From Heliomicrobium sp. (GTDB taxonomy: Bacteria > Acidobacteriota > Blastocatellia > RBC074): a stretch of DNA of 64,000 nt. The notes below the pieces were generated by a model, which saw nothing but the letters and a program-made list of their open reading frames with translations, did not search any database and had not been told where the DNA came from. The translations under genes were made by a program, and so were the position numbers. Numbering within the stretch: the stretch's first letter is position 1; every line of letters starts with the position of its first letter. Positions 1,330 to 54,604 of the stretch are shown in pieces. The DNA lies in assembly GCA_021155085.1 (NCBI GenBank), contig JAJNQA010000048.1, positions 4,023-68,022 of the forward strand, given 5' to 3'.

Positions 1330-1360
1330 TCGGAAGGCCGGTTGAGTTCACTAAAAAAAT

Positions 1361-1396: not shown

Positions 1397-1809
1397 TAAC
1401 TTTCTTAATTTCTTGTCCTGGTCAATTCCTCCCACCAATTTCCTGATTCTCCATCATCAGACCCTGATCCACTTTTTCCTGACCATTACGTTTTGGAATC
1501 CGAAAATCTGAAGAGATTATCCAAGTTTTTGCACTGCTGCATTTGTCATCTGGCTGATTTGTTAATGTAAATCCAGCATATTGCGGGAATTAGCGAAACT
1601 CGCCTGTTGTCGTCTTGATAGGAACATGACTTGCCAATAACAAGATTCACTTGAGTTACAAAATATCATTGTTGCTATAACTTGCTTTGATCCGTTGTTG
1701 CCAGGGGTGAAACCCAACCTTCCCCAAACAACTGCAAAGATGGGAGCCATTCCCAATTTTCGTTCAACTCCGCAGTTAGGAAAATCAATCACAAAATCAG
1801 GAGGGTAAT

Positions 1810-5022: not shown

Positions 5023-5047
5023 CGAAAACCACCGGTTTTCCCCAAGC

Positions 5048-5088
5048 CAAAGAGGGCTGGAAAGCGAATCGCTTTCCAGCCCTCTTTG
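5048..5088 (+). terminator. Rho-independent terminator after the second receptor gene
   Basis: The stem is agagggctggaaagcg / cgctttccagccctct (16 bp, 3 nt loop), followed by ttgctgttt. The stem begins with the same GAGGGCTG motif as the terminator at 1361. Confidence 0.7.
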
Positions 5089-5128
5089 CTGTTTCCGTCA
5101 TACAGCGTCTGACTGCCGATGGCTGCCT

Positions 5129-5797: not shown

Positions 5798-5894
5798 CTG
5801 TCGCTCCTTCAAAAAAGCGTTCGTAGTTCCGCGTTACGCGGCGGGACTTGGCGGTCAAGACTTTTCGCTGGAAGACGGGACTACAAACTTTGTT

Positions 5895-6407
5895 TTACTT
5901 GAGGGATTTCAGCAGCCGCTGCCATTCCTTGTTCTCGAAGAACGCGCGCACGGCGCGCAAAGTTTCCGCGGCTTCGTGCATTTTTCTGTCCGGCACGCCA
6001 ACGCCGGATTTTGAAAGCAGCTTGTGTTCGCGGCGATTCATTCTGTCCACCGTTTTTTTGCCCAGCGGCGTCAGGCGCGCGAACGCGGAACGTTTGTGCG
6101 CGGGATTTTCGATGAATTCCACGTAACCGGCTTCCGCCAGTTGATTGATCAACGTTTGCACATGCTGCCGCGACACGGAACGATCCCGCGCCATTTGCGG
6201 CACGGTCTGTTCGCCGTGCTTGTCCAGATTCCGCAGAATGCTCCGCAATCCGCCGGACATTTCGCCCTGCTGATGGACTTCGTCGGCGACGATCTTCAGC
6301 CGGTGAAACAACAGCGAGGTTTCATTGATCAGCACATTGAACGCCGAATCCGCCGGTTCAGGCGCTTTCGCTTTTCGCGTGAGGGCAGTCTTTTTTTCTT
6401 CAGTCAT
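5895..6407 (-). CDS. MarR-family transcriptional regulator
   Basis: A winged-helix region typical of MarR is present (TVPQMARDRSVSRQHVQTLINQLAEAGYVEFIENPAHKRSAFARLTPLGKK). The size is 170 aa. Confidence 0.85.
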   Translation of the reverse strand: MTEEKKTALTRKAKAPEPADSAFNVLINETSLLFHRLKIVADEVHQQGEMSGGLRSILRNLDKHGEQTVPQMARDRSVSRQHVQTLINQLAEAGYVEFIENPAHKRSAFARLTPLGKKTVDRMNRREHKLLSKSGVGVPDRKMHEAAETLRAVRAFFENKEWQRLLKSLK

Positions 6408-6425
6408 TCTTGAGTTACCGTGAAC

Positions 6426-6460
6426 GACAAGCAGTTTGTCATTATGACAATCTGCTTGTC
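6426..6460. promoter_or_regulatory. 35 bp near-perfect palindrome, candidate MarR operator
   Basis: In gacaagcagtttgtcattatgacaatctgcttgtc, 16 of 17 positions pair across the centre. It lies 19 nt upstream of the marR-like ATG. Confidence 0.6.
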
Positions 6461-10627: not shown

Positions 10628-10631
10628 GTGT

Positions 10632-10679
10632 GACAGGCTTGCGACCTGTCTACAGTGTGGACAGGCCGCAAGCCTGTCC
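10632..10679. repeat. Cassette-boundary double-hairpin element (GACAGGC..GCCTGTC x2)
   Basis: In gacaggcttgcgacctgtc-tacagtgtg-gacaggccgcaagcctgtc the outer 12-mers are exact reverse complements. The element lies between the type-A stop (10685) and the type-B start (10627). Confidence 0.7.
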
Positions 10680-10684
10680 TACAT

Positions 10685-14097: not shown

Positions 14098-14150
14098 TGG
14101 CTGACCTCCTGAAAAAGTTATAAGTGGTTTTTGACGCGCTGGAAAACGTG

Positions 14151-14188
14151 GGACAGGCTTGCGGCCTGTCTACACTGTGGACAGGCCC
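14151..14188. repeat. Cassette-boundary element, second (partly truncated) copy
   Basis: The sequence ggacaggcttgcggcctgtc-tacactgtg-gacaggcc has the same core and the same position (type-A stop to type-B start) as 10632..10679. Its right arm is shortened. Confidence 0.65.
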
Positions 14189-14192
14189 CGTC

Positions 14193-15980
14193 CTACATTT
14201 GGTTTGGCAGCGCGAGATCTTTGATGCGCTGGCAGGCTTTCAATTCGATTTCGTGTTTGGCGGCTTCGGCGTCTTTGCGCAGTTGAGCGCGGCTGGCTGC
14301 GTCCCAAGCCAGCGGATTCGCTTGCCGTTCGATTTCGTCGCTGTCGGGAAGCGCGCGCGTCAGCAGAAAATATTTCCCCGGCGGGATATTCCGGAAGCCG
14401 AATTCGCCGGTTTTGCTGGCGCGGCTTTCAGCGTAACGCAGCAGCTCATTCGCCGCCGCCGGTTCCGCCGGAATCAGATGAACCTGTAATCGCGATGGCA
14501 GCGGCGCGCCTTCTTTGGCCGCGACTTTTCCCTGTAACGTCGCGCCGCCGTCGCTGACGGCGACGGTCACATCGGAATATCGTTCCGCCGCCTTCAACGC
14601 CAGGCCGCTGCGGCTCAATTCGGCGGTCACGCCGGAACGCACCGGAACGCCTCGGCTGGATAGAGAGATGACCGGGCCGCTGATGGATTTCACAAACCCG
14701 GTTTCGTTTCGCAAACCAGCGGTCAGGCGGTAACGGCCCGGCGTCAACCGCGTGATTTTGAATTCGCCTTGTTCATTCGGCGAACCGCTTCCGTAGGGAA
14801 CCTGCCGGCGGGAAAGCGGTTTGGCGTTGGCGCGTTCGTCGTAAGTTGCAAAGAGGGACATTTCCCCGACGCTGATTTTCCGCTTCGGATCGCAAACCGA
14901 GGCCGATTTTTCAAGCGAGACACGCCCATAAACGATGGCCAGGGAAATCATTGGCAAATCCAGGCCGCTGACATCCGCGCCTTTGACCGTGATGCGGCGG
15001 GGTTCGGACGCGAACATTTCATCGGATTCGGAATTGCCGTAACGCGCCTCCAATTCATATTCGCCATCGGGAACGCCTTGCAGCGCGAAGGTGGATTCGC
15101 CAAGGCCTTTCTGAACGAAGGTGTTGGCGGCAGTGATGCCGGTGGTTGCATCCCGCAGCGTAACGCTCGCGCTGGTATTCAGTAGCGCGAGTTCAGCGCC
15201 GGAGATTTTGCCGCTGACAGTGCGTCCGCTTTCGCCGCGGTGGCGAATGTCCACGCCGGAGGTTTCGCTGCCGCCGCTGACTTTGACTTCGGCGGCGGTG
15301 TCGCGCGTGGATGACGGATGATAGGTCGGCGTTTCGCCATGAAAAGGGGACAACCCAGGCACGACAATAGACTGCCCGCCATTGGCGACGACAATGTAGG
15401 TTCCCGGTTGCAAGCCATACAAACGGTAAATGCCCCGGTCATCCGTGGCGCGCGGAAAGCTGTTGTTGGAGGCGTTGATCTTTTTGTCTTCTTCGTTGCG
15501 GATGCGAATGGCGGAAACCGAAATACCGACGATGGGGTCGCCGTTCGGATCGCTGACGCGGCCCGTGATGACGCCGCCTTTGCGCATGGTGATGGTGACG
15601 GTTTCGCCCGGACGCAAATTGCCCAGTTTGACGGGACCGGCCAGGATGTAGCCTTTCTGAATGCTGAGCGAAATGTTGTAGCTCCGATCCGAAAGATTGT
15701 TGAACTGGAAATTGCCATCCGCGTCCGTGGTCGTTGAGCGGGACGTGCTTTGCGCACTGCCTGATGACAAATGAACGCCGTAATCAGCCAGCGGTTTGCC
15801 GCCATCGGCGACGATGCGGCCACGGATGGAACCGCTTTCCTGGCCGTAAGCCGCTCCCGATGCCAGCAGCCATACGAATAGCCATAGAATTCCGAGAGGT
15901 GTCAGCCGCCGGGTAGAAACAGTCCGGTATGGCCATTTCCCATGATTCTTTTTGCACTCGAAACTTGTCTTGCTTGGCAT
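14193..15980 (-). CDS. Secreted multi-CarboxypepD_reg-like repeat protein, type A, copy 3 (595 aa)
   Basis: It is co-linear with the other type-A genes (DDRGIYRLYGLQPGTYIV; Cys pair ASVCDPK and ELKACQ). The N-terminus before the hydrophobic signal segment is longer. Its ATG lies 2 nt after the upstream stop. Confidence 0.8.
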   Translation of the reverse strand: MPSKTSFECKKNHGKWPYRTVSTRRLTPLGILWLFVWLLASGAAYGQESGSIRGRIVADGGKPLADYGVHLSSGSAQSTSRSTTTDADGNFQFNNLSDRSYNISLSIQKGYILAGPVKLGNLRPGETVTITMRKGGVITGRVSDPNGDPIVGISVSAIRIRNEEDKKINASNNSFPRATDDRGIYRLYGLQPGTYIVVANGGQSIVVPGLSPFHGETPTYHPSSTRDTAAEVKVSGGSETSGVDIRHRGESGRTVSGKISGAELALLNTSASVTLRDATTGITAANTFVQKGLGESTFALQGVPDGEYELEARYGNSESDEMFASEPRRITVKGADVSGLDLPMISLAIVYGRVSLEKSASVCDPKRKISVGEMSLFATYDERANAKPLSRRQVPYGSGSPNEQGEFKITRLTPGRYRLTAGLRNETGFVKSISGPVISLSSRGVPVRSGVTAELSRSGLALKAAERYSDVTVAVSDGGATLQGKVAAKEGAPLPSRLQVHLIPAEPAAANELLRYAESRASKTGEFGFRNIPPGKYFLLTRALPDSDEIERQANPLAWDAASRAQLRKDAEAAKHEIELKACQRIKDLALPNQM

Positions 15981-15982
15981 GG

Positions 15983-17680
15983 CTATTTCTCCTGGCTGAG
16001 GTCAACCGTCAACGATGTTTGGGTTTCGATGCCATCGCTGACCGTCACAAGCTGTTTGACGGCGGCCAGCCGGGGGAAAATCTTCGTCACCATCTCATTG
16101 GTCGGTTTGCCGGTGACGCCATACTGGAGCCGAACTTCGTATTGGCCGGGAACCAAATCCTTAATGATGAAATGTCTGCGTTCGTCGAGCAAAGCGGGAA
16201 CAAGACCGAAGGTATGGTTTTCCGTGCGCCTCAGGTTGACAGATAACCGAATGCCTTCGGGAAGCTCCGCGCCGATGATTTTTACCTGTCCGCGCACGAT
16301 TCCTTCGCCGTAGCCGTAAACAATGCGAATGTCTTTGACCTGTTCGCCGGGGCGAATCTCGAACTCCCTGGTTTTCAATGGCACGCCGTTTCTTTCGACG
16401 CGGAGCAGGGAAGCTTTGAATAATTGGGAATAGCCGGACAACCTGACCTTGCCCGGTGGCAAGCCGACGACGCGGAAACTGCCGTCCGCTCCGACCTTGC
16501 CGGTGCGCGCTCCGGTGAAGGCCGCAGTTGATGAAAATGAGGCTTCGAGTGAAATCTGCGAGCGTCTGGCCAGCACTGCCGGATCGTTTGTGCCTTCGAT
16601 GACGACCGTGCCGCTGATCGAAACCCCGTGCCGTGCTCGGACTTCGACTCCGGCAACGTCGCTGTCAATGATTTCGACAGCCGCCGGCTCGCTGTAGAAA
16701 TCGGTTTTGCCTTCGCGATTTTCAATGAAAATGCCGTGCCTGCCCGGACGCGCACCCAGAATTTGAAACTCGCCCTTGGCGTCGGTGCGCGCGCCGCTTG
16801 TATAACCCATCATTCGCCCGTCCTGATTGAACGTGCCGAACGCCAGACTCGTCCCGGCGACCGGCTGTCCGGTTTCGGCATCCACCACGCGCCCGGAAAT
16901 TTCATAGGCTTTCACCGCTTCCGCGGTTTTGATGTCCACGTCGGAGGCTTCCTGGCCTTCTTCCAGTTCGATAACTTTGGCCAGGGCTTCGTCGTTGGTG
17001 TCGGGGTGAAAGGTTTCCGGAATGTAGGTGCGGGAGGTACGCATCGTGAAGGCATTCGCTCGGACAGGTACTCCCACGCTGACTTTGTATTTGCCTGGGG
17101 GTAAACCGTAGATACGGTACACGCCGCGATCATCGGTTCGATACATCATTGAGCTGGACACCGTATTCATCGGCGGACGCCAGGGCGTGGACTGTCCGGC
17201 GGAATTGATCTGGCTCAATTGAATAGTGGTTTCGATCAGCGGTTCGCCGCTGGCGCCGGTGACGCGGCCCGTAATGACGCAGCCGCGTTTGAGCGTCAGT
17301 TCCAGATTTTCAATGGTTTCGCCGTTCGCGACGCTGATCGTCTTGCCCTGGATTCCGAAGCCTGACTGATTGAGTTGATTGCCTTCCGTCACAAATGCGG
17401 ACGCCAGCGCGCCGATGGTGTATTGTCCGGCGGCGATGCCCGCGATGCGAAATCGCCCGTTGGCGTCGGTTTTCGCGCGCGGCGGAACGGGCTGGCTGGA
17501 ACCGTAGGAATTGATCGCTTGCACGGTGACGACGACATTGCGCATCGGTTCGCCGTTCAAGGTGACGACGCCCGCGATGGTCGCCGCGCCTTCTTTGGGC
17601 GGCGTTTGCGCAAGCAGATTGAATGACAATGCGGAAACGAAAAGCAGGAAAACCCGGCTGAATCTGAGTGCTGGCATCAT
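15983..17680 (-). CDS. Secreted multi-CarboxypepD_reg-like repeat protein, type B, copy 3
   Basis: It is co-linear with the other type-B genes. I place the start at the ATG at 17680, with GGAGG 6 nt upstream, giving MMPALRFSRVFLLFVSALSFNLLAQ. The ORF-track start at 17698 is a TTG lying on the RBS. Confidence 0.8.
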   Translation of the reverse strand: MMPALRFSRVFLLFVSALSFNLLAQTPPKEGAATIAGVVTLNGEPMRNVVVTVQAINSYGSSQPVPPRAKTDANGRFRIAGIAAGQYTIGALASAFVTEGNQLNQSGFGIQGKTISVANGETIENLELTLKRGCVITGRVTGASGEPLIETTIQLSQINSAGQSTPWRPPMNTVSSSMMYRTDDRGVYRIYGLPPGKYKVSVGVPVRANAFTMRTSRTYIPETFHPDTNDEALAKVIELEEGQEASDVDIKTAEAVKAYEISGRVVDAETGQPVAGTSLAFGTFNQDGRMMGYTSGARTDAKGEFQILGARPGRHGIFIENREGKTDFYSEPAAVEIIDSDVAGVEVRARHGVSISGTVVIEGTNDPAVLARRSQISLEASFSSTAAFTGARTGKVGADGSFRVVGLPPGKVRLSGYSQLFKASLLRVERNGVPLKTREFEIRPGEQVKDIRIVYGYGEGIVRGQVKIIGAELPEGIRLSVNLRRTENHTFGLVPALLDERRHFIIKDLVPGQYEVRLQYGVTGKPTNEMVTKIFPRLAAVKQLVTVSDGIETQTSLTVDLSQEK

Positions 17681-17841
17681 TGGAATTCCTCCGATCAATT
17701 GCTGATGGATCAGGTTGTAAAACTTGCGAGAGGGCTTGGTGAAATTTTGACAGGCGGATTGTATTCAGCTTGTAGCGGCGAGGCCAGCTTTTTCATAGTA
17801 TTCTCCGCGTCCAAAACATTTTTTCAGGGAAACATCCAACA

Positions 17842-22943: not shown

Positions 22944-25910
22944 TTAAAACGTTCGTCCGACGCTGAAGCGCATCACCGTGCGGCGCTCGATGAACAGCAC
23001 GGTCGGATCGGTAATATCTGTTTTCGCCTGGGGGTTGTAGGCGAAGATCAAACGGAACGGCACGTTGATGACAGGCAACTGCACGCGAAACTCCAGGCCC
23101 ATTGAAGAGCGGAGGTCGGAAAGGAACTTCACGTTCTGTTCCGAAGTGCGGACAATGCTGTAATCGCGCGAATCCCCCTGCAGAAAGATTGTCCGGTAGC
23201 CAATCGCATTGCCCAACACATCGCGCGGCGCGCTGGCCAGTTCTTCGGGCGTCGCCACACGGCCAGCCGGGTTGAGCGTGACGCCGCTGGGCGTGATGGT
23301 TTGATTGATGAAGTTGGTCGTGGACAACTGATCCTGGTACTTGCGCGCGTTGAAGGAGGAGCCGACGTCCGCGAATGCCGCAATCGAAAGCACGCTGAAC
23401 ACCGGGATGCGGTATTCCAGGTTGTAGATAAACTGGGTATCGCCGCCGATCGGCGTAAAGAACCGGCGCGCCCGCAGCACATTGCAGGCCGCCGAACCTG
23501 CCTCCGGGCAATTGCCTTCCGGCGCTTCAAAGGTGTAATTGCGGATCACGCTTTGGGCGACGGTGCCCGCCGGAGCGTCAATTAGCTTGGTCGAATCCGC
23601 CGGGTCAACCACTTTCGCCGAAACGTTTCTTGTGGACAGGAACGAATCGGCGGGCACGACCGGCGAGATCGAACGGAAATTGTATCCGCGAATATCGAAT
23701 TCTCCGCCCAGATAGTAACGTTCAAAGAGCGGGATTCCGCCGACGAACGACAGTGTCTGAGTCGTGAACGGCGTGCCGAAGGACCGGATATGATCGGCGC
23801 GCAAGCGCATGGCCACGACGTGTGGTTTCTCCGTCCGGCGCCGAAATACGGGTTTGAAGAACTGATACTCCAGCGATGGCGCAAAGGTGTTCACGTCGCC
23901 GCCGAGAATGCCGCCCGAAAGCGAGAAGCCCAAAAACAGGCTTTGTCCATTGGTCGGATCCAGCGTGCCGTTCTTCGTGTTGTAGTAGATATTCGGCGTG
24001 ATGCGGCTGGTCAGAATGCGCGGTTGCGAGAACGTTACTGGAATGTCGTTCGTCGGGTCGCCATCGGTATTGACATTCGGATCTTGAATGCTGTTGGTCG
24101 CCAGCGAATACGACAATCCAAAGCGTGTCGAGCGCGCGAAGGTCGGAAACTTCTTGGTGAACAATGCCAGCGGAGAGGAAATGTTGATCGAACCGCCGGT
24201 TGTCCGCTGCGTGAAGAGCGTGTCGGCATCAACCGAAGACAGGCCGAAGAAGCTGGCCTGCAAAATCTGATCCGCCTGCGCGAAGTTGAATCCCTGGCCG
24301 ATGTATTGGTACCGGGAAGTGAAAAGCTGGAAACCCAATTGAATCGGTTTGCCGAACAGATACGGTTCGGTAAATCCAAATTGCGCCGAAAGCTGACGAT
24401 TGCCGCCTGACAGCGCCAGGCTCAGGGATTCACCATAACCGAGCAGGTTATTGGTTGAATACGTGATGCCGAAGAAACTGCCGGCAAAGCCCGAAACGCC
24501 GCCGTTCAACTGAATTTCCTGACGCCCGCGCTCTTTGACTTGCAGGTCAATGTCCACGGTCTGATCGCGGTCGTTGGTGCGGGTGATCGCGTCCTTTTCC
24601 TTGACCTCTTCAAACAAGCCGAGTTGATTGAGGCGATTCAGGGAAAAGTCCCAGTATCGTTTGTTGTACGGATCGCCTTCGTTCAGCAACACCTCGCGGC
24701 GCAACACCACGTCGCGCGTGTTGGTGTTGCCAATGAACTCCAGGCGGCGCAGGCTGAATTGACGGCCTTCGTCAACTTCCAGCGTCACTTCAACCTCGCC
24801 CTCTTCGGCGGTTTTGTCAGTGAATTTGGGAATGAAATCCACGCTGGCCTGAATGTACCCCTGGGTGCCGTAAACGTCCTTGATTCCCTTGTAGACGTTT
24901 TCCTGAATCTTTTTGGCGTCAACGTAATCGCCTTCCCGCAGACCGGACACGGCTTTGACAATCCCCGGCTGGAAGATGGTCACGCCTTTTTCTTCGACTT
25001 TGGTGATTTTGTAACGGCGACCGACTTCGATGGGAATACTGATTTTCTTGCCGGGGCCGGTCTTGCGCAGTCCTGGAATCGGCAGCGGGAATCCGCCGGA
25101 AACCGTTCCGGCATCTTCCACCACAGGCTCGCCAATTTTGGCCTGGAGATAACCTTTCGTGCCCAGGAAGAACCGCACACGCTCAAGATCATCCAGCAGC
25201 TTCTCTTTGAAGTAGATGTCCTTGGAGGTAAAGGTCGAAATCAGGCCGGCTTCCTTGACCAGCTTCATTGCGCCGCGCAAGCGCCGTTGCGAAAAGCCGT
25301 CGCGGTCGCCGGTGAATTCAATATCCTTGACACGGACGCGCGGACCTTCTTCCACATTGAAGATGAGGGCGACCGTCGTGGCGGAAATGTCTTCGACTTC
25401 GATCTGGACGACGGCGTTCGGATGGCCTTTTTCGGCCAGCAACTCTTTCAGCACCAGCCGCGCGCCGTTGGCCTTGGCCGGATCGAATTGCGATTCCTTG
25501 CTGATTTGTGAGCGGCGCTCCTTGAATCGGGTCAGCACTTCGCTTTCGGTCGCTGATTTCATGCCCCGGTACTGAAGGTCGCGGATAATCGGATATTCCT
25601 TCACCTGAAAGATGATGATCTTGCCGCCGCGCGGCCCATCTTCAACGTAAAGTTTGGTTCCGAGTGGATCGAACAGTCCCATTTGCAGAATCGCCTGTAA
25701 GTCACGATTGGCCAAACTCTGGTCAAAACGATCCTGCGGTTTACTCTGGACGTAATAAAGGATTGATTCTTTGGGAATTCGGCGGTTGCCGCGAATTTCC
25801 ACGTCTTCAACGAAGACGTCCTGATTTTGCGAAAATGCCGGACGAACTGAGACAAGGGTAACAAATACTAGAATCAGTGCGCTTGCCACAAAGGTAATGC
25901 GCTTGGTCAT
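22944..25910 (-). CDS. bamA: Outer membrane protein assembly factor BamA (988 aa)
   Basis: An N-terminal signal is followed by repeated POTRA-like modules (VEDVEIRGNRRIPKESILYYV..., IKDIEFTGDRDGFSQRRLRGAM..., LRRLEFIGNTNTRDVVLRREV...). The C-terminal barrel ends in ...RFSVGRTF. It shows synteny with skp and lpxD. Confidence 0.92.
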   Translation of the reverse strand: MTKRITFVASALILVFVTLVSVRPAFSQNQDVFVEDVEIRGNRRIPKESILYYVQSKPQDRFDQSLANRDLQAILQMGLFDPLGTKLYVEDGPRGGKIIIFQVKEYPIIRDLQYRGMKSATESEVLTRFKERRSQISKESQFDPAKANGARLVLKELLAEKGHPNAVVQIEVEDISATTVALIFNVEEGPRVRVKDIEFTGDRDGFSQRRLRGAMKLVKEAGLISTFTSKDIYFKEKLLDDLERVRFFLGTKGYLQAKIGEPVVEDAGTVSGGFPLPIPGLRKTGPGKKISIPIEVGRRYKITKVEEKGVTIFQPGIVKAVSGLREGDYVDAKKIQENVYKGIKDVYGTQGYIQASVDFIPKFTDKTAEEGEVEVTLEVDEGRQFSLRRLEFIGNTNTRDVVLRREVLLNEGDPYNKRYWDFSLNRLNQLGLFEEVKEKDAITRTNDRDQTVDIDLQVKERGRQEIQLNGGVSGFAGSFFGITYSTNNLLGYGESLSLALSGGNRQLSAQFGFTEPYLFGKPIQLGFQLFTSRYQYIGQGFNFAQADQILQASFFGLSSVDADTLFTQRTTGGSINISSPLALFTKKFPTFARSTRFGLSYSLATNSIQDPNVNTDGDPTNDIPVTFSQPRILTSRITPNIYYNTKNGTLDPTNGQSLFLGFSLSGGILGGDVNTFAPSLEYQFFKPVFRRRTEKPHVVAMRLRADHIRSFGTPFTTQTLSFVGGIPLFERYYLGGEFDIRGYNFRSISPVVPADSFLSTRNVSAKVVDPADSTKLIDAPAGTVAQSVIRNYTFEAPEGNCPEAGSAACNVLRARRFFTPIGGDTQFIYNLEYRIPVFSVLSIAAFADVGSSFNARKYQDQLSTTNFINQTITPSGVTLNPAGRVATPEELASAPRDVLGNAIGYRTIFLQGDSRDYSIVRTSEQNVKFLSDLRSSMGLEFRVQLPVINVPFRLIFAYNPQAKTDITDPTVLFIERRTVMRFSVGRTF

Positions 25911-26239: not shown

Positions 26240-28708
26240 TTAATGCACCAGCACCTCGCCCGCTTCCAGCGGTTCCGATGCCTCGGACAATTCTTCGTCC
26301 AGTAAAGGCAGGGGACGAATGCCCAGCTTGTCGCCATCCAGAACGATTTCGATGACCGACACGCCAGAGAGCTGTCCTTGAATTAATGCTTCCGACAAAG
26401 GGTCCTCGACATGCCTTTGCAGGGCACGGCGCAGCGGACGTGCGCCGTAACTGCGGTCAGTGCAGGTCTGTTCGACGATCCAGCGTTTGGCGCCTTCGGT
26501 CAATTGAATCTCCAGACCGCGATGCCGCAGCGTTTGATTCATCTGGTTCGCCAGCAAGCCGACGATGTTCAGCAGATTGTCATCGGTCAGCGGTTCGAAG
26601 ACGATAATCTCGTCCAGCCGGTTGATGAATTCGGGATTGAAGGTTTCGCGAACGGCGGCCATCACGCGGTCTTCGGTCTTCGTCTGCGCGTCCTGCCGCG
26701 ATGAATTGAAACCAAAATAACCGCCTTTGTTGACGAACCGTGCGCCCAGATTCGAGGTCATCACCACGATGACGTGTTTGAAATCCACCGTGTTGCCCAG
26801 CGCATCGGTCAGCATGCCGTCTTCAAAAACCTGCAACAGGATGTTGAAAATATCCGGGTGCGCCTTTTCGATTTCGTCCAGCAGCAGCACAGAGTATGGA
26901 TTGCGCCGAACCCGCTCGGTCAACTGCCCGCCCTCTTCGTAGCCGACATAACCTGGCGGCGATCCGATCAGCTTCGAGATCGAATGTTTCTCCATAAATT
27001 CCGACATGTCGAAACGGATCATCGCTCGTTCGGAACCAAACAGAAAATCCGCCAGTGACCGCGCGACTTCCGTCTTGCCCACGCCGGTCGGCCCCAGAAA
27101 CAGAAACGATCCCACCGGACGATTCGGACTTTTCAGTCCCGCGCGCGAACGGCGAATGGCGCGCGCCAGCGCCGAAATGGCCGATTCCTGGCCAACGATT
27201 CGCTTGTGCAGTTCGTCGCCGATTCGCAGCAGCTTGGTGGCCTCGCCTTCCTGCAGGGAAGAAACAGGGATTCCCGTCCAGCGTGAAATTACATCTTCAA
27301 TATCCTGTTTGACGACCAGCGCGGCGATGTTTTCGAAATCGGGCGGCTCGTAGTATTGCGGAGTGCGGCGCACGCTGGAATAGATTCGGTCGCGGTCGCG
27401 CAGATCATTGCGGAAATCGCCGCGCGTTTCGCCGCGCATTTCGCGCGAGTCGCGTGAATCGCGCTGCCAGCGCGGCGGCGGCGGGACGTAGCCGCTTTCG
27501 CGCTGCACGCGGAGTTTCACGCGCGCTCCGGCTTCGTCAATTACGTCAATCGCCTTGTCGGGCTGAAATCTTTCGGGCAGGTAGCGGCTGGACTGGTAAA
27601 CGGCGGCCTCGATGGCATCTTCCGTGTAACGAACGTTGTGATAAGACTCGTACCGATCCTTGATGCCTTCGACGATGACGATGGTATCTTCTTCGTTGGG
27701 AACGGGGACTTTGACGGCCTGGAAGCGGCGTTCCAGCGAGCGGTCGCGTTCGATGGATTTGCGGAACTCCGCTGGAGTCGTCGCCCCGATGCACTGGATT
27801 TCTCCGCGCGACAGGGCCGGTTTCAGGATGTTTGCGGCGTCGAGACTTCCTTCGGCGGAGCCGGCGCCGATCAATGTGTGAATTTCATCAATGAAAACGA
27901 TGTACTGCGGATTTTCGATCAGTTCGCGCATGATCGTCTTCATCCGCTCTTCAAACTGGCCGCGGTATTTGGTTCCTGCGACCACCAGGCTCAAATCGAG
28001 CGCCAGAATCCGCTTATCCACCAGGAAAGACGGAACTTCGCAGTTGACGATACGCTGCGCCAACCCTTCGACAATCGCCGTTTTGCCGACGCCCGGTTCG
28101 CCGATCAGGACCGGATTATTCTTGGTCCGGCGGCAAAGGATTTGTGTCACGCGGTCAATCTCTTCGTCGCGCCCGACCAGCGGGTCCAGCTTGCCTTCCA
28201 GCGCATCGGCGGTCAGGTCGCGGCAGAACTCGAACAGATGCGGCGTGTCTTTGCGGTGGTGCGCATTGCGTTCCATGTTCGCCTGCCGCATCAAATCCTG
28301 GCGGATGTCCGATAGCCGCAAGCCGCGCTCGTATAAAATTTCGGCGGCGATGGAATTCTCTTCGCGCAGCAGACCCAGCAGCAGATGTTCCGTGCCGATG
28401 TGCCGATTGCCCAGCCGTTCGGACTCTTCCGCCGCGAAAGCCAGCACGCGCTTGGCTTCGCCGGCCAGCGGCAGATCAATGTTGTTCGGAATGCGGTCGC
28501 GCAGCACTGTGCGCCCTTCGATCTCGCGGCGAATGGATTCAACTGTGGCGTGGGAGCGGTGGAAGAAACGATAGGTCAAATTTTTATCTTCGCGGATCAG
28601 CCCCAACAGGATATGCTCGGCCTCAATTTGAATGGCGCCGAACTGGCTGGCTTCGTAACGCGCGAAGAAAATTACGCGGCGCGCTTTCTCTGTGTAACGT
28701 TCGAACAT
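26240..28708 (-). CDS. clpC: ClpC/ClpA-type AAA+ chaperone-protease ATPase (822 aa)
   Basis: It has an N-terminal double Clp_N repeat ([20 protein letters not shown]..., [12 protein letters not shown]). It has two AAA+ modules with Walker A motifs GEPGVGKT and GPTGVGKT and a ClpB_D2-small-like C-terminus. Confidence 0.88.
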
Positions 28709-48785: not shown

Positions 48786-48833
48786 AAAGCCGCACGCCTC
48801 CGCCAGTGAAAACTGGCGGAGGCGTGCGGCTTT
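48786..48833. terminator. Strong bidirectional terminator between purD and the convergent secreted-protein gene
   Basis: The perfect stem is aaagccgcacgcctccgccag / ctggcggaggcgtgcggcttt, about 21 bp including the A/T flanks, with a 6 nt loop. Confidence 0.75.
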
Positions 48834-48861
48834 GCCGGAAAGTTCATTCACCGTTTGTTTA

Positions 48862-50940
48862 CTATCCGCAGCGTCCGTTGAGCAGCTTCCAGATGTCGGC
48901 CAGCGTGCCCATGTCATTCAGACGGTTTTCCTTGATCGCCAGAGTGGTTTGCATGACCAGCGTGTCGAGCAGGGAATTGGGGGCCAGCGTCACACCGTTG
49001 CTGAGGGTCACTGGCGCGAAGGCGATGCCGGAGCAGGACAGTGGACTCCAGAACGTGTTGAAGACGACCGGAGAGCCGCCGCCGCCGGAGTAGGCGAGGC
49101 TCAATTGTGCGGTGACGAACTCCTTGTTCAGTTTTTGCATCTGGCCGGAGCCGCCCTGCAACGCAATGCGAATGGCGTTGGTGCTTTGCTGAATTCCGAC
49201 TGGATTATTGGCATTGACGCCGGAGATGAGCACCGTGCCGCCTGGCAGGTAGCGGCTGTTGGTGATGAAGAACTGTGTCGAGCGCCAGCAGATGGTGTCG
49301 CATTTCGTAGTCGTCCCGCAGGCTTCACCAAAGTTGTAGTTGGCGCATTCCACACCGTTGGTGACCGTGATGTTGGAGATGAGATCGTTGCCGACAATCC
49401 CGCCGCAATTTCCTGCCGCGTCTTTGCCGTCGCCCGTTACCGAGCTGCCCGTCGGCTGGACTTCCATCACGGAGTAGGTGCCCGGCTGAGCGATGTTGAA
49501 TTTGTAGAGTCCGCTGCTGTCTGTCTGGGTGGTGTCAACCACCTGGCCGCCTGAATTGAGCAGCCTGATTTCAACATTGGCAATGCCGGCTTCGCCCGAA
49601 TCCTTCACGCCGTCGTTATCGCTGTCGCAATAGACGAAGCCGGAGAGCCAGCTTCCCTGTTTCTGCTGGCAGGGCCAGCAGATGAAATCGCAGACTTTGC
49701 CGGACGGATACCAGCCAATGGTGCCCGTCTGCAAGCCGAGTCCGATATTGGTCTGGCGGTCGTTTGGGCGCTCCATGCGTTTGACCACGATGTTTTCAAT
49801 CACGACGGTCGTTGTTCCGATATTGTTTCCGCGCTTGACCTCGACCGAAAGCTGGTAGCAGCCCATAAATGCCGGCGAGGAAGTGGAAAACACAAGTGTC
49901 AGCGGGAAGGTGCGTGTGCCGCTGGCGCCAGCGGGGATAAGAAACTGCGCCGCCTGGCCGACTCCCTTTGAGTTCATTCCATTGACCAGTAATTTCACAT
50001 CGGGATGAAGTTTGGTGACTTCCGCGCTGCCATTCTGGATTGTGAACATGGCGACTTGCTGCGCGACGCTTTTGTTGGAATCGAGCAGATTCAGCGTCAC
50101 CATATCTCCGTCGGTGACGCCACTGCTGGCAATTTCCATGACGATGTCCCAAAAGCTTTCGGTGCAGGAGAGCGCTTGCAGGGTGGAGTTCGGCGTGGAG
50201 TAGGAAAAACCCTGAACTTTGGGACTTTCCGCTGTCACGTTCCTGCCAAAGGTGTACGGGCCGGCATCAAAGACGGAAGCCTGATCAGAATTGAGTGTCA
50301 GGATGGTCGGGTCAGACAGAGTAAATGTATCGTCCTGGGAATTCGTGCCAAATGTTTTGCCATGGACGATTGAGGGGATACGCACTTGTTTGTGCGACGG
50401 GCTTTGGATGAAGTAACTGTTGGGACCGGCCAGATCGCCCGCCGCATCGGGAATGAGACAGGTGTTGGAACCGGGCGAAACCTGATCCTGCCCGGCCAGA
50501 TAGGTGCCCGGCGCAAGGCGGACCGTGGCGCCGCCAATGTTGACCGAACCCGCCAATCCCGCAATCGGTTTGGAAAAACTGGTGACAATGCCGCAAACCA
50601 GTGAAATGTTATAGCCGGAAAACCCCTCCCCGCCGGTGATTTGTCCCTCTCCGTTAAAACAGAAGCTGAAACAGCGGTCCTGCCCGACGGAGACGGCGGG
50701 AATTGTCGCGCCACGCGCAATGACATAGGTAAGGCCGGCGATTTTTATTACGCCGGTGGCGTTGCTGTTTGCAGGCGTGTAGGCAGAGACCGTGCCACAG
50801 ATGCCCGCTCCTGCCGGCAACGCCGCGCCGGAGGCTGCGACCGTCAGGTTGAAGAGCGCGCCGATTTTTGAAAATGACAGGCCCAGCAACATCAATCCAA
50901 TTGTGAGAGCAAGCATGCTGAGTGTAGTTCGTTTTTTCAT
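48862..50940 (-). CDS. Large secreted repeat protein, paralog 1 (692 aa): 2 Cys-bracketed repeats, conserved middle region, SdrD-B-like module, 147 aa Cys-containing C-terminal domain
   Basis: It has a signal peptide and repeats bracketed by Cys48/Cys90 and Cys116/Cys161. An SdrD-B/Cna-B-like segment is present (GFVYCDSDNDGVKDSGEAGIANVEIRLLNSGGQVVDTTQTDSSGLYKF). The C-terminal domain runs KCDTICWRS...LLNGRCG. Confidence 0.8.
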   Translation of the reverse strand: MKKRTTLSMLALTIGLMLLGLSFSKIGALFNLTVAASGAALPAGAGICGTVSAYTPANSNATGVIKIAGLTYVIARGATIPAVSVGQDRCFSFCFNGEGQITGGEGFSGYNISLVCGIVTSFSKPIAGLAGSVNIGGATVRLAPGTYLAGQDQVSPGSNTCLIPDAAGDLAGPNSYFIQSPSHKQVRIPSIVHGKTFGTNSQDDTFTLSDPTILTLNSDQASVFDAGPYTFGRNVTAESPKVQGFSYSTPNSTLQALSCTESFWDIVMEIASSGVTDGDMVTLNLLDSNKSVAQQVAMFTIQNGSAEVTKLHPDVKLLVNGMNSKGVGQAAQFLIPAGASGTRTFPLTLVFSTSSPAFMGCYQLSVEVKRGNNIGTTTVVIENIVVKRMERPNDRQTNIGLGLQTGTIGWYPSGKVCDFICWPCQQKQGSWLSGFVYCDSDNDGVKDSGEAGIANVEIRLLNSGGQVVDTTQTDSSGLYKFNIAQPGTYSVMEVQPTGSSVTGDGKDAAGNCGGIVGNDLISNITVTNGVECANYNFGEACGTTTKCDTICWRSTQFFITNSRYLPGGTVLISGVNANNPVGIQQSTNAIRIALQGGSGQMQKLNKEFVTAQLSLAYSGGGGSPVVFNTFWSPLSCSGIAFAPVTLSNGVTLAPNSLLDTLVMQTTLAIKENRLNDMGTLADIWKLLNGRCG

Positions 50941-51234
50941 GTTTCATTTCTCCAAAGGGAAAATCCCAAGCCTTTGGCTCAGGGGGGTAATGCTGAAGCG
51001 GAATTGATCTTCAGTAATAGACGGGGCAACCGGCTGATGGCATCAAGCCAAGTTGTCGGACAGACCGCAAAATTCCCAGTGAAACGAATCGAAGAAAAGG
51101 GGGAATGTAAGAAGATGAGATTTTAGTCTTCCTGATACATTCGCCATTGGCTGATGCCTGCTGACAAGAACCTGAGTCTGAATCCGGCGTGGCGGAAGTG
51201 AGGTCTGCCACGCCGGACGATAGTGTTTGTGGAA

Positions 51235-53520
51235 TCAGCAACGTCCGTTGAGCAGCGCAATGATATTCGCCAGGGAGACCATATCCTGCGTGCGATTTTC
51301 ACGGATTGCCAGTTGAGCCTGCATAAACAGCGTATCAAGCAGGGAGTCACGCGAGAGCGAAACGCCATTGCTTAACGTGACAGGGGTAAAGGTGATGCCG
51401 GAACACCGGATCGGGCTCCAGAAGGTGTTAAAGACCACGGGAGACCCCGTACCGCCGGCCGATGCCAGACTTAACTGCATGGCCACAAATTGCTTGTTGA
51501 GCATTTGCAGCGGGCCCGTGCCGCCTTGCAGCACCTGCATGATCAACTCCTTGTTGCGCTGAATGCTGACCGGGTTATTGAAATTCACTCCGCCAATCAG
51601 GATTGCGCCGTTGGGAAGACGGTTCATTCCGTTTGTCAGGTAATACTGGATCGAACGGTAGCAGACCGTGTCGCATTTCACCGGCATCGGCGGCATGGTC
51701 GGCGTCGGTGTCGGAGTTGGAGTCGGCGTCGGAGTTGGTGTCGGCGTCGGTGTCGGTGTTGGAGTCGGAGTCGGCGTCGGCGTTGGCGTCGGCGTCGGCG
51801 TTCCATTCGGCGTTGGAGTTGGCGTTGGCGTCGGCGTCGGTTGCAGGAAACAACCATTGCAAACTACGCCGCAGGCCAGGCCCGTCGGATAAAGACCATT
51901 TCCGCTGGTTTGGATGCCCTGACCTTCCTGTTCGTCACCTTTGCGGATGACGACTACATAATCAACCACCACGGTGGTCATTCCTACGCCGCCGGTGCGT
52001 TTGATATCAATGCCGAGTTGCAGGCAGTTCATCAGCGTGGATGCCATATCCATCGAGAAGATGAGGGCGATGGGCGGTGTGCGTGCGCCCCCGCTGCTGC
52101 CGGCGGGAATCATCAGTGGAATAAAGTGGCCCACGCCATAGGGACCATTGCCATTGACGGTGATGCTGATGTTTTGATGCAGTTGATTGAGGACAACGCC
52201 GCCATTCTGCACAGTGAACATGGCGATCACCTGAACCCCGGAGCCATTCGGGTTTTGAGCGAAGACGGTGATCATATCGCCTTCCGTCGCGCCCTTGGAC
52301 GAGATTTCAAAGACGAGATCCCAGAACAGGTCCGTGCAGGAGATTGCCCGAACAGTCATGTTCGGATTCATGGCCATAATGCCCTGCGGATTGGTTCCCT
52401 GAATCGCCGGGAATAGTCCGAACGTGGACGGATTGGCAGAGAAAGTGCTGACTCCGGCGGAGTTTGACGATGATACCAGGAAGTTAAATGGACGCGGCAA
52501 CAGGAAGGTATCGTCTTCGCTGCCGTTGACCAGACCATGCACAACCATCGGAGCGGAAAATTGTGCGCAAGCCGAATCGCCTGCCGCCAGTCCAGTGCCC
52601 GCCGAAACGAATCCGTTGCTAAGCACCAAGGGCGCCAGGCAGACATTGCCGCCGACAGCTATTGAGTTCTGGCCGGCGATAAAGGTTCCGGGCGCAATTG
52701 GCAATGTGATTCCGCCCAGTGTGATTGATCCCTGCATGCCGGCGGGAGAAGACTTGTAGTCCGTGACAACGCCGCAGACTTTGGTTTCGTTGCCGCCGTT
52801 GGCGCCCACTGAAGTCGGCGCAACAAGCTGGCCGTTGATGTCCAAAACCCCGGCCATGCAATAGCTGGCGCCGACAGTGATATTGCCGATGTCAACTCCC
52901 TGGGCAATGGTGAAACTCAGTCCGCCAATCGTAATGCCACCGGTTGAATTCGCAGTTGCGGCTTTGTAATTTGAAACTGCGCCGCAGGTGAAAACTGATG
53001 AAGTAATATTCACAACCGCCGCACTGGGATTGGAAACTTGTCCTCCCCCGTTCAGCGTCGCCGTCAAACACATGTTCGATCCGACGTTAATCAGGCTCTG
53101 GCCTTTGATGGTCGTGTTCGCCGCGATGACATAATTTGCCGAGCCGATCGAAATGTTTCCCGGCTGATTCGGCGTGGCGGCTTTGAAGCTGTTAACGCCG
53201 CCACAGGCTGTGACCACGCTGCCCCCGACCGTGCTGGGCGGGACGATTTGATTGGAATTGTTGAAGACCGCGTCAAGACAGACGCCCGTGCCGACCGAAA
53301 TGATTGCCTGCCCCCCGATGGTCGTGCCTGGGGCAATTGTATAATTCGTGCCGTTAATATTGATCGAGCCGGCAGTCGTGGCTGTGGCCGGATTGTAGGC
53401 CAGCACGGAGCCACAGATCACCGCTGCGGTTTCCGCGGAAACGGAGGATGGTTTCCACTTGGCGGCCAGGGCCAGACACAGCGTCAAGCAGAGTGTGAGA
53501 ATCGTTGTTTTCATTCGCAT
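51235..53520 (-). CDS. Large secreted repeat protein, paralog 2 (761 aa): 4 Cys-bracketed repeats, conserved middle region, (TP)n linker, 147 aa Cys-containing C-terminal domain
   Basis: It has a signal peptide. Repeats have a period of about 70 aa and are bracketed by Cys36/81, Cys106/151, Cys179/221 and Cys249/294. The middle region and the C-terminal domain (KCDTVCYRS...LLNGRC) are co-linear with paralog 1. Confidence 0.8.
51697..51840 (-). repeat. Coding microsatellite-like tract encoding a 48 aa Thr-Pro linker
   Basis: The tract consists of ggYgtY hexamers (ggcgtcggtgtcggagttgg...) and translates to [13 protein letters not shown](TP)17T. Confidence 0.9.
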
Positions 53521-54551
53521 GGAACTGTCTCCTTGAAGCCGATCAGGAGGCAGGCTTGGAAGTCGAAGGCGCGAGTTTCGCGCCTCGTGAGGCCTGTCTT
53601 CACCTGTTCCTGATCCTGTCTTCAGATTAAACGCAATTTGGATTCAGAGTTTTGAAATAACGGGTGTTGTCTGCCGCAATTTTGCCGCCAACTGTTAAGT
53701 TGGCTATTTGCGGTTCATTGGTTAAATAAGGGACAAGGGGCGTTGCCTGTATTGAACACACCGGGATCGCAGGAACCCAGGTTTGGCACCGAGCCTTTTA
53801 CCGATTTACTCGAATTGTCAATGAAATGAAGGCGAGGCAATAGCAGGGAATTCCCGCAATTGTGGCAAAGAACACCCTGAAAACTGCCGGGGAGTTTTTA
53901 TTGATTACCGCCCAGTGAGTGCGTCAGTGAATACTTGTGCGATTTCTTCGGAGAATACGTCCGCAAATTATGAACCGCTCAGACGCAGCAAACCCTGTCG
54001 AGGTTGGCCGGATAATTTCACGTAATTTCGATGCCGGTTCGAGTTGATACCTGTTCGGTCGTTTCCCCGATCACGCGATGCTTCACGGCATCAATGATCG
54101 GCAGTTTCAATTGGGGCATTGGAAAGAGGGCTTCTCAGGACTAATTGCTGTCTTGAATCGGCCCGTTCGCGGCAAGTCCTTCACAACAACAGATGAAATA
54201 GCAGCGCCAAAGCCCGACCCAAAACTTGATTTCGATGAGTTACCTTGAAGATTTGAGGCGATTTGTGAGGAACTCATCTGGCTGATGAGTGTACGCATTT
54301 TAGCCTCACCCGTCTATAGCTTTTCGGCTGCAGGGGTAAATTTAATCTTTGCCTATCAGGCACTTGGCTGTTTTTGAGGAGTCTTGAGCGGGTGCGCATC
54401 GAATCGTTTTAGATCGAATTCGGACCGGATAAATTCCTTTACTTTTTCTCTTTCAGCTTGCCTCACCCGTGAGCCCGCTGGGCCTCGCAGCAACCCGATC
54501 CAGCCTGGCCAGCGGAAGAGCGTTCATTGGCCCGAAAGTGGCTGACAAAAT

Positions 54552-54596
54552 AAAAAGTCAGGTCTGCCCCATTGGAAATGGCAGACCTGATTTTTT
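54552..54596. terminator. Bidirectional rho-independent terminator after tal
   Basis: The stem is tcaggtctgcc / ggcagacctga (11 bp), flanked by an A5 run upstream and a T6 run downstream. It lies 9 nt after the tal stop codon. Confidence 0.75.
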
Positions 54597-54604
54597 GAAG
54601 TTAT

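Follow-up and report, generated by a model that had tools for sequence, protein, structure and literature searches.

A conserved tandem pair of modular exoproteins in Blastocatellia sharing an unannotated C-terminal domain

Organisation and conservation of the gene pair

The window, i.e. the whole stretch of 64,000 nucleotides analysed, comes from a soil acidobacterium of the class Blastocatellia and contains two neighbouring genes, called here A and B, which are clearly paralogs (Table 1). A first-pass annotation of the DNA had described them as encoding large secreted proteins with a common modular layout, and both ORFs were recovered with this layout: a signal peptide, Cys-bracketed repeats of about 70 aa, a co-linear middle region, a spacer and a C-terminal domain (CTD). 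Using BLASTP, the repeats and middle regions of A and B were found to be 39% identical over 392 aa (E 8e-73) and the CTDs 64% identical over 147 aa (E 9e-57), slightly above the 60% first estimated by eye. The proposed numbers of repeats, two in the shorter and four in the longer protein, agree with the Cys positions.

Table 1. Features of the A/B locus (positions in the window)
Feature	Positions	Strand	Description
Perfect GC-rich hairpin, gene A/purD interval	48786-48833	.	Terminator scan; fold -52 kcal/mol, z -8.35
Gene A	48862-50940	minus	692 aa; signal peptide, 2 Cys-bracketed repeats, middle domain, SdrD_B spacer, CTD
CTD of A	48865-49308	minus	aa 545-692; four conserved Cys; unannotated module
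SdrD_B (Cna-B-type) spacer domain of A	49312-49653	minus	aa 430-543; Pfam PF17210
Middle domain of A	49666-50445	minus	aa 166-425; all-beta, jelly-roll/CBM-like in model
Two Cys-bracketed small beta-barrel repeats of A	50446-50802	minus	aa 47-165; Cys positions, AlphaFold model
Predicted signal peptide region of A	50833-50940	minus	aa 1-36 approx., MKKRTTLSMLALTIGLMLLGLSFS...; read from sequence; predicted cleavage site
Hairpin 19 nt past gene B stop, without U tract	51184-51216	minus	Fold -25.8 kcal/mol, z -4.45
Gene B	51235-53520	minus	761 aa; signal peptide, 4 Cys-bracketed repeats, middle domain, (TP)n linker, CTD
CTD of B	51238-51681	minus	aa 614-761; 64% identical to CTD of A
(TP)n linker of B	51682-51849	minus	aa 558-613; translation and tandem repeat
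Middle domain of B	51850-52566	minus	aa 319-557; ends C-x3-C-x2-C; 39% identical to A
Four Cys-bracketed small beta-barrel repeats of B	52567-53418	minus	aa 35-318; Cys positions, unit-to-unit homology
Predicted Sec signal peptide of B	53434-53520	minus	aa 1-29 approx.; read from sequence; kept in orthologs; predicted cleavage site

The secreted and disulfide-rich character proposed for both proteins is supported at the level of prediction: their N-termini resemble Sec signals, in which a hydrophobic stretch comes after a start rich in K and R, and the number of Cys is even in each module of A and B. The start codon of gene B and its AAGGAG ribosome-binding site are kept in 30 orthologous loci, and in gene A a GGAG precedes the ATG by 9 nt. 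The host is a diderm, BamA being encoded within the window. The hairpin lying between gene A and the convergent purD is probably a bidirectional terminator.

Gene A corresponds to the NCBI entry 'SdrD B-like domain-containing protein [Blastocatellia bacterium]' (P0025), with 100% identity over the 427 N-terminal residues searched and the same length of 692 aa. Gene A has about 30 orthologs, at 50-81% identity; those of gene B are 722-762 aa long and are labelled 'hypothetical protein [Blastocatellia bacterium]'. The B-then-A tandem, convergent with purD, was detected in at least 25 species-level Blastocatellia MAGs, and no cultured isolate carrying the pair was found. A and B thus form an old tandem duplicate kept across Blastocatellia (Acidobacteriota).

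N-terminal repeats and middle domain

The Cys brackets (C48-C90 and C116-C161 in A; C36-C81, C106-C151, C179-C221 and C249-C294 in B) span 43-46 aa within each repeat period. Off-register matches between units in the BLASTP comparison of A with B (E 5e-15 and 1e-7) show that the repeats are homologous. In the AlphaFold model, each repeat unit of A is a run of 4-5 strands with a pLDDT of 85-93. The resemblance to DUF5666 (PF18914) suspected at first sight proved real but faint: weak alignments of the units cover most of the profile's 60 positions, both in the window and in relatives, and none reaches the gathering threshold of 27 bits. The scores were 11.7 bits for the whole of B, 15.5 bits (E 0.022) for one of the six units taken in isolation, a unit of B, and 25.2, 24.7 and 22.3 bits for three relatives. 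DUF5666 was absent from the recurrent family matches of 34 family members, and the conserved Cys bracket sets the A/B repeats apart from it. A remote homology to DUF5666 is possible.

The middle regions of both proteins share the motif SCT[ED].FWD[IL]V.EI[AS]S.G.T[ED]GDM[IV]T, as originally noticed, and the Cys and FWD/GDM motifs are invariant in 34 sequences. Neither A, B nor the 34 relatives gave any Pfam or other sequence-family match for this domain. Its model in A (pLDDT 89.6) was submitted to Foldseek, which returned CBM44, CBM11, Stig cyclase, ConA-type lectin and tailspike C-domains. The model aligns over about 180-300 columns with jelly-roll CBMs and ConA-like lectins (CBM44 2c26, CBM11 6r3m), but these matches are weak, with E of only 2e-4 to 4e-3 and TM of at most 0.36, though with probabilities of 0.9-1.0. 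The middle domain may thus be a CBM/lectin-like jelly roll, as the weak Foldseek matches of the model suggest.

Spacers

The spacer of A contains a domain detected by PF17210 at aa 434-509 with 66.4 bits (E 3.2e-18), above the gathering threshold of 29.7. Consistently, a PDB profile search with a profile built from 34 relatives matched the B domains of SdrD, UafA and Cna (E 2.6e-18 for the SdrD B domain). In gene B the (TP)n linker appears as a tandem repeat of period 6 nt in 23.8 copies (51698-51840). The first-pass annotation, which spoke of a swap, was right that the spacers differ. The difference goes back a long way, each ortholog lineage having a fixed spacer type, and does not reflect a recent swap.

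A resembles the staphylococcal Sdr MSCRAMMs (SdrC/SdrD), with their Cna-B stalk domains, in having one true SdrD_B domain between a presumed binding region and a terminal module. It differs from them by its single B domain, by the absence of an A-region, of SD repeats and of an LPXTG motif (the protein ends ...LLNGRCG), and by its diderm host. As a full SdrC/SdrD protein (NCBIfam NF000535 and NF012181) A was rejected, scoring 45.6 bits (cut-off 1700) and 44.8 bits (cut-off 2500), the B domain alone being matched. No enzyme domain was detected in A or B by Pfam, NCBIfam or PDB profile searches, in which only SdrD_B passed a curated cut-off.

The C-terminal domain

The Cys motifs read in the CTD from the start (KCDT.C, CSG and GRC) and its invariant block were all found again, and none of the four Cys varies among 21 close relatives. 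Co-loss of Cys supports two disulfide staples; the pairs would be C3-C92 and C7-C147. AlphaFold models the CTD of A confidently (pLDDT 93.2, pTM 0.88), with seven helices and short strands, and Foldseek gave no neighbour for this model in PDB or BFVD (best PDB match E 1.4, TM below 0.25). No match to Pfam, NCBIfam or PDB sequences was obtained either, nor did 40 diverse CTDs give any Pfam or NCBIfam profile match with E up to 10. The initial impression that the CTD fits no family is thus borne out: it is an unannotated domain family without a family or structure match in the databases searched. The same searches (Pfam at E up to 10, PDB with Foldseek) gave no match to SLH, dockerin, LysM or other known anchors.

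The CTD is the most conserved structured domain of both proteins. Its conservation is 77% among A orthologs, against 55-58% for the other structured domains (n=17), and 72% among B orthologs, against 65-67% (n=29), the low-complexity (TP)n linker being at 75% in the latter comparison. Such high conservation suggests a conserved partner. Asn, Gln and Asp make up the near-invariant polar residues, which comprise no His/Ser/Glu set, and no conserved residues of catalytic type were seen. The pI of the CTD is 9.1 in A and 9.4 in B, against 4.0-6.0 for the remainder of each protein; over the family the median is 8.3 and a quarter of the members lie at or below 6.5, and the basic charge is mild.

These features bear on the possibility, raised by the first-pass annotation, that the CTD acts as a toxin-like effector; the N-terminal part would then serve to deliver it. 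Being an unfamiliar C-terminal domain on large secreted proteins, it invites this reading, which we nevertheless consider highly improbable. In polymorphic toxins the delivery region is conserved, the C-terminal toxin domain varies, and an immunity gene lies adjacent. Here the situation is the reverse: the CTD is constant and most conserved while the N-terminal regions vary. Conserved residues of catalytic type are lacking, ordinary exoenzymes are among the proteins that carry the CTD, and no immunity-like ORF was found downstream of A, which is followed by the probable terminator and then by the convergent purD.

Distribution and fusion partners of the C-terminal domain

The CTD family comprises about 212 clusters at 50% identity, and all named carriers are Acidobacteriota. 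The first-pass annotation had asked which architectures the CTD pairs with; it proved to be fused to many unrelated secreted proteins, including proteases, hydrolases and Ig/TIG/HYR/Kelch repeat proteins. The fusion partners are Peptidase_S8+P_proprotein, Reprolysin_4, serine hydrolase, VWA+HYR, TIGx14, Big_3_5+Kelch, BNR and SdrD_Bx5. The CTD is mostly located at the extreme C-terminus, followed by a tail of 0-10 aa, a position that would suit a sorting role as well as a tethering one. It also directly follows the signal peptide (P0127, P0129, P0130, P0136, P0158 and P0192), constitutes with the signal peptide the complete protein (P0168, P0115, P0141 and P0200), is found twice after the signal peptide in P0154, and is internal in P0079, ahead of a domain of about 125 aa (CARDB match). 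The CTD is therefore a promiscuous and autonomous module.

This distribution recalls the CTD of the T9SS of Bacteroidota, which is likewise restricted to a phylum, usually C-terminal, and common to many secreted or surface proteins that are not related to each other, such as proteases and Ig-repeat adhesins. A T9SS-like secretion or sorting signal, recognised by a dedicated machinery of the outer membrane and then cleaved or used for covalent attachment to the surface, would agree with the usual terminal position, with the fact that a single phylum has this domain on proteases, hydrolases and adhesin-like repeat proteins, and with its high conservation relative to the passenger domains. We regard it as unlikely because the CTD also occurs after the signal peptide, internally, alone or doubled. 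Moreover, the T9SS CTD (Por_Secre_tail) folds as a beta-sandwich of 70-100 aa, always lies at the C-terminus and is cleaved off, whereas the domain described here has 147 aa and is modelled as mostly helical, with four conserved Cys forming two putative staples. None of the 40 CTDs matched Por_Secre_tail or another sorting-signal model, and no recurrent neighbour gene, in particular no conserved processing gene, was found near CTD genes in three unrelated contexts. The tags of exosortases, archaeosortases and rhombosortases (PEP-CTERM, GlyGly-CTERM) combine a short motif near the C-terminus with a transmembrane helix and, after it, a basic tail; they were rejected on the basis of the ...LLNGRC(G) end, which has no hydrophobic helix, and of the absence of NCBIfam matches.

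Tandem pairs of CTD genes recur: B+A, a pair encoding 1306 and 749 aa at three loci (L036, L039 and L041), and P0066+P0067 (L054). Together with the doubled CTD of P0154, this would be expected of an oligomerisation or partner-docking module, forming hetero-oligomers, for example of the A and B products, or binding a scaffold. Yet many CTD genes occur singly, the analysis turned up no protein resembling a scaffold with a repeated receptor domain, and the CTD shows no coiled-coil or other known oligomerisation signature, which makes this possibility distinctly improbable.

Proposed role of A, B and the C-terminal domain

The best explanation, which we hold tentatively, is that A and B are lectin- or adhesin-like, non-enzymatic exoproteins with a new autonomous tethering CTD. 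The signal peptide would bring them to the periplasm, where every module would be oxidised and fully disulfide-bonded. The small beta-barrel repeats and the jelly-roll, CBM/lectin-like middle domain would form the ligand-binding end, probably for a glycan, judging from the fold. Between this end and the CTD there would be a rigid stalk of the Cna-B/SdrD_B type in A and an extended (TP)n linker in B. In MSCRAMMs and cellulases, anchors and targeting modules sit beyond a stalk or linker, and by analogy the position of the CTD would fit a tethering role.

A target outside the cell has also to be weighed. The CTD could direct its carriers to an environmental polymer serving as food source (plant, fungal or microbial polysaccharide), like a CBM on a PT linker; the (TP)n layout resembles that of enzymes made of a catalytic domain, a linker and a CBM, stand-alone and tandem forms are also seen with lectins and CBMs, and Asn, Gln and Asp are prominent among the conserved polar residues. 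This remains rather unlikely, since the carriers (proteases, serine hydrolases, VWA/HYR and Kelch proteins) have no common substrate, conservation as high as this points to a target on the cell itself, known CBMs mostly have beta folds, and no structural match to the CTD was found.

Among the roles first suggested for the CTD, anchoring thus appears to fit best, strictly C-terminal sorting being disfavoured by the N-terminal, stand-alone and tandem forms, and a toxin being disfavoured as well. In our tethering hypothesis the CTD resembles SLH domains, dockerins and CBMs on PT linkers. Like these, it is an autonomous module that can lie at one end or the other of varied exoproteins, often preceded by a Pro/Thr linker, and exists in stand-alone and tandem forms; like these, it would direct its carriers to a shared polymer or scaffold. 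It differs from them in having no sequence or structural similarity to any, and its Cys-staple pattern and restriction to Acidobacteriota are its own. This basic alpha/beta domain of 147 aa, found in Acidobacteriota only, would be an extracellular binding module, acting as a targeting module of the SLH, dockerin or CBM type and not as a cleaved secretion tag. It would tether many unrelated exoproteins to one common target, most likely an anionic constituent of the envelope or exopolysaccharide matrix of the cell itself.

Organisation of the gene pair

Genes A and B, described in the first-pass annotation as a paralogous pair of large secreted proteins, were both recovered as minus-strand ORFs where it had placed them. 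Their paralogy was borne out by BLASTP, which aligned the repeats and middle regions of A and B with 39% identity over 392 aa (E 8e-73), and the shared C-terminal domain (hereafter CTD) with 64% identity over 147 aa (E 9e-57). The repeat units also matched each other off-register (E 5e-15 and 1e-7) and are therefore mutually homologous. Each unit is bracketed by a Cys pair 43-46 aa apart. The units recur every 70 aa or so, with 2 in A and 4 in B, as had been noted, and all the cited middle-region and CTD motifs were found in both proteins. The reported difference between the spacers was also recovered, an SdrD_B/Cna-B domain in A and a (TP)n linker in B. The former is a true member of its family (Pfam 66.4 bits for a cut-off of 29.7) and its profile matches the PDB SdrD B domain with an E value of 2.6e-18. 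The latter is encoded by a 6-nt repeat in 23.8 copies.

The N-termini of A and B read as predicted Sec signal peptides, and the start of B is kept together with its AAGGAG ribosome-binding site in 30 orthologous loci. The number of Cys is even in every module when those of the middle region are pooled, with 18 per mature protein, which would fit an oxidising, extracytoplasmic location. No enzyme domain was found in either protein by family scans; weak Pfam matches to DUF1263, Secretin and Trypan_PARP were set aside as sub-threshold or low-complexity. Two plus-strand ORFs overlapping A and B were rejected as shadow ORFs of GC-rich DNA, homologs backing only the minus-strand frames.

Features of the gene pair, its flanks and other genes in the window
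Feature	Position (nt)	Strand	Details
CarboxypepD_reg + large outer-membrane beta-barrel protein	1810-5022	+	
Six head-to-tail paralogous genes	7196-17698	-	556-595 aa
BamA	22944-25910	-	POTRA x4 + Omp85
ClpB/ClpC-type AAA+ chaperone	26240-28708	-	
Shadow ORF (rejected)	48832-49554	+	
Gene A	48862-50940	-	ORF, 692 aa
CTD first-strand Cys motif, A	49285-49305		aa 546-552
Middle-domain Cys motif, A	49669-49692		aa 417-424
Hairpin 19 nt past B stop	51184-51216	-	GC-rich, without U tract; -25.8 kcal/mol, z -4.45
Gene B	51235-53520	-	ORF, 761 aa
Shadow ORF (rejected)	51490-52416	+	
Repeat encoding (TP)n, B	51698-51840		
Middle-domain Cys motif, B	51850-51873		aa 550-557
Region upstream of B	53521-54604		1.08 kb, without ORF of at least 80 aa

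N-terminal repeats and middle domain

The model built for residues 40-430 of A contains only beta structure (pLDDT 89.6, pTM 0.82), with four or five strands in each N-terminal unit. The faint likeness to DUF5666 perceived in the repeats persists as a resemblance, while family membership does not follow, the scores in the window being 11.7-15.5 bits for a cut-off of 27; three relatives reach 22-25 bits, and the match is not recurrent among 34 members. Some proteins carry the repeat module but no CTD, among them one from a Chloroflexota MAG and a He_PIG Ig protein. Neither the Cys-bracketed barrels nor the middle domain carry a family annotation.

Searching with this model, Foldseek retrieved jelly-roll folds, namely CBM44+PKD (2c26), a mannanase CBM (1wky) and CBM11 (6r3m), as well as Stig cyclases, a legume lectin and phage tailspike C-domains. 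The matches are weak (E 2e-4 to 4e-3, probability up to 1.0, TM 0.36 or less). As they align about 180-300 columns of the 391-residue model, they would lie on the middle region, the Foldseek output carrying no query positions. They hint at a lectin- or CBM-like binding domain, at the level of the fold and not of family membership.

In both lineages, and in all 34 family members, the middle domain terminates in a conserved C-x3-C-x2-C motif. In A-type proteins this end, [VI]C[DE]F[VI]CW (VCDFICWPC), is nearly identical to KCDTICW, the strand with which the CTD opens, so that similar Cys staples stand on both sides of the SdrD_B spacer. This likeness may stem from duplication of the junction or point to an alternative strand for docking.

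The C-terminal domain as an undescribed family

The first-pass annotation could not place the CTD in any family, and we reached the same result with Pfam, NCBIfam, PDB sequences and Foldseek. Neither of the two window copies has a Pfam or NCBIfam match, nor has any of 40 diverse members scanned singly at E up to 10, and a profile search against PDB sequences returned nothing (best E 0.59). The AlphaFold2 model, computed from 21 sequences, consists of seven helices and short strands (pLDDT 93.2, pTM 0.88). Its Foldseek search, a check proposed with the annotation, found no neighbour in the PDB (best E 1.4, TM below 0.25) and nothing in the viral library BFVD. An exhaustive HMM search over 1.84 billion representative proteins gathered 212 clusters at E up to 1e-3, 176 of them at E up to 1e-10. 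Apart from a few MAG titles, all the members with a named source come from Acidobacteriota or Blastocatellia. The CTD is an undescribed family without detectable structural neighbour.

Among the A orthologs (n=17), conservation is 77% in the CTD, 55% in the repeats and 58% in both the middle region and the spacer; the corresponding values for the B orthologs (n=29) are 72%, 65%, 67% and 75%, the last one belonging to a linker of low complexity, (TP)n. In neither lineage is any other structured module as well conserved as the CTD. That it might be a toxin is extremely improbable, this pattern being the opposite of that of polymorphic toxins and no immunity gene being present. Across 40 diverse CTDs, the four Cys, several Gly, Pro and Leu and the polar residues N32, N34, N61, Q68, N104, D132 and N144 are invariant or near-invariant, and no conserved set of His, Ser, Glu or Lys hints at catalysis.

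All four Cys are present in 72 of the 115 full-length CTDs. C3 and C92 are jointly missing in 4 and C7 and the aligned C147 in 7, and from this co-loss we infer two disulfides, C3-C92 and C7-C147, that would fasten both termini of the domain to its core. The CTD is basic, with a pI of 9.1 in A, 9.4 in B and a family median of 8.3; outside this domain, both proteins are acidic (pI 4.0-6.0).

Carriers of the domain and its proposed role

In the representative set, Pfam assigned to the CTD carriers SdrD_B x5, HYR+SdrD_B, TIG x14, Big_3_5+Kelch, DUF7507, Peptidase_S8+P_proprotein, Reprolysin_4, VWA+HYR+CARDB, BNR/sortilin and a beta-lactamase-type serine hydrolase. The domain is usually C-terminal, followed by a tail of 0-10 residues and ending in ...LLNG[RND]..C. 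It can also directly follow the signal peptide (related proteins P0127, P0129, P0130, P0136, P0158 and P0192), precede a further domain of about 125 aa (P0079, which has a CARDB match, P0091 and related proteins), form the entire small protein with its signal peptide (P0168, P0115, P0141 and P0200), stand between a signal peptide and a Cys-rich tail, or occur as two tandem copies (P0154). No recurrent partner or processing gene was detected beside the CTD genes in three unrelated contexts. The domain is promiscuous, phylum-restricted, autonomous and without known relatives.

To be distinguished from these forms, the "stand-alone" homologs of 147-150 aa returned by the first search were rejected as contig-end fragments of B-type genes. 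Their contigs end within the (TP)n repeat, and gene callers begin at a conserved Met just before KCDT. At locus L001 the CTD ORF is open up to the contig start, and the related proteins P0011 and P0020 are incomplete and begin with PT-rich sequence.

A and B would be exported by Sec and form disulfides; their N-terminal part would bind a ligand, probably a glycan, and either a stalk (SdrD_B) or a flexible linker ((TP)n) would keep this part at a distance from the CTD. The CTD in turn would tether many unrelated exoproteins to a single shared target, which is most likely anionic and part of the producing cell's envelope or EPS. We favour this tether reading tentatively, at a little less than an even chance. 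It draws on the location of the CTD beyond the stalk or linker, on the presence of the same module on passengers without shared substrate, on its conservation, the highest of all modules, on its basic charge and on the existence of stand-alone and bivalent forms. A CBM-like substrate-targeting module would act by the same mechanism on a different target, and we consider it unlikely. A cleaved sorting signal is somewhat less likely still, being weakened by the N-terminal, stand-alone and doubled forms.

Tandem CTD genes recur: at locus L054 (2345-7729), P0066 (513 aa) adjoins P0067 (1220 aa), and at L036, L039 and L041 (about 200-6447), a protein of about 1306 aa adjoins one of about 749 aa. 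Such pairs speak for an oligomerisation or docking module, which we nevertheless regard as quite improbable. A more specific form of the tether would combine an unseen fold with an Acidobacteriota-specific targeting system, the CTD being a shared tag by which a whole set of exoenzymes and adhesin-like proteins is fixed to one particular receptor of the envelope or matrix. The recurrent pairing of CTD genes and the resemblance between the C-D-x-I-C-W staples flanking the spacer would then belong to its assembly logic. This proposal, which we hold as rather doubtful, likens the CTD in role to the SLH-SCWP, dockerin-cohesin and T9SS CTD systems, to each of which it is unrelated.

More generally, the T9SS CTD, SLH, dockerin and CBM targeting modules are the closest to the CTD by role, not by sequence or fold. 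A shares a genuine SdrD_B domain with the MSCRAMMs but differs from them in scoring 45 bits for cut-offs of 1700-2500 and in lacking an LPXTG motif. We rate A and B as modular exoproteins with a promiscuous, putative targeting domain that appears new as a family.

Orthologs and genomic context

A search with the 427 N-terminal residues of A retrieved an NCBI MAG protein of the same length (692 aa) at 100% identity, along with about 30 orthologs at 50-81%. Public names go no further than "SdrD B-like domain-containing protein" and "hypothetical protein", B orthologs being named "hypothetical protein [Blastocatellia bacterium]". The order B, A, then convergent purD recurs at loci L002-L005 and, in a GTDB scan, in at least 25 species-level MAGs, which indicates that the duplication is old and that each spacer type was fixed within its own lineage. 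The housekeeping neighbours of the pair are purD, lpxC, transaldolase and a sugar kinase. Variants include P0231 (833 aa), with four repeats and an SdrD_B domain, and the 1306-aa forms in L036, L039 and L041. The GTDB locus search was run with the alignment of 21 close CTD relatives, which makes the CTD count per genome incomplete; no cultured carrier was identified among its matches. Our literature search on Blastocatellia secreted C-terminal domains, DUF5666 and TIGR03437 found nothing relevant.

At L002 (8502-10594), on a low-coverage contig, the A ortholog is broken by a frameshift into ORFs of 499 and 197 aa, which is an assembly error or a pseudogene. Several MAG records with the gene pair bear the titles 'uncultured Heliomicrobium sp.', 'Heliobacteriaceae', 'Gammaproteobacteria' (one) or 'Verrucomicrobia' (one). 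These off-lineage titles, which occur among loci L006, L009, L012-L014, L018, L020, L026, L029 and L033 and for protein P0221, are probably taxonomic label or binning errors.

A perfect hairpin follows A (-52 kcal/mol, z -8.35). The weaker one between the paralogs, after B, may terminate transcription in part or stabilise the mRNA. No Rfam match was found by scanning 46-56 kb, and in the 330 nt closest to B the ribosome-binding site is the only part conserved among orthologous loci. A sigma-54-like motif, TGGCGGCAAAATTGCG, located 170 nt upstream of B, was missing from 30 orthologous upstream regions and was dismissed as a chance occurrence. Elsewhere in the window, the presence of BamA indicates a diderm host. 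The six head-to-tail paralogs each contain several CarboxypepD_reg, SdrD_B or SpaA-type transthyretin-like beta-sandwich domains, and form a second expanded family of repeat proteins that are probably secreted.

Significance for the acidobacterial exoproteome

Acidobacteriota rank among the most abundant soil bacteria and, to our knowledge, almost nothing is known of how they display or retain secreted enzymes and adhesins. The gene pair is conserved in Blastocatellia and would encode a surface component that probably binds glycans. Its CTD is compact, confidently modelled, unannotated, without PDB neighbour and present on more than 200 clusters of extracellular proteins within the phylum. Should it tether proteins to the surface or matrix, it would provide an "address label" for part of the acidobacterial exoproteome, could offer a handle for predicting cell-associated proteins and, as a new fold, would enlarge the small repertoire of protein-targeting modules in bacteria.
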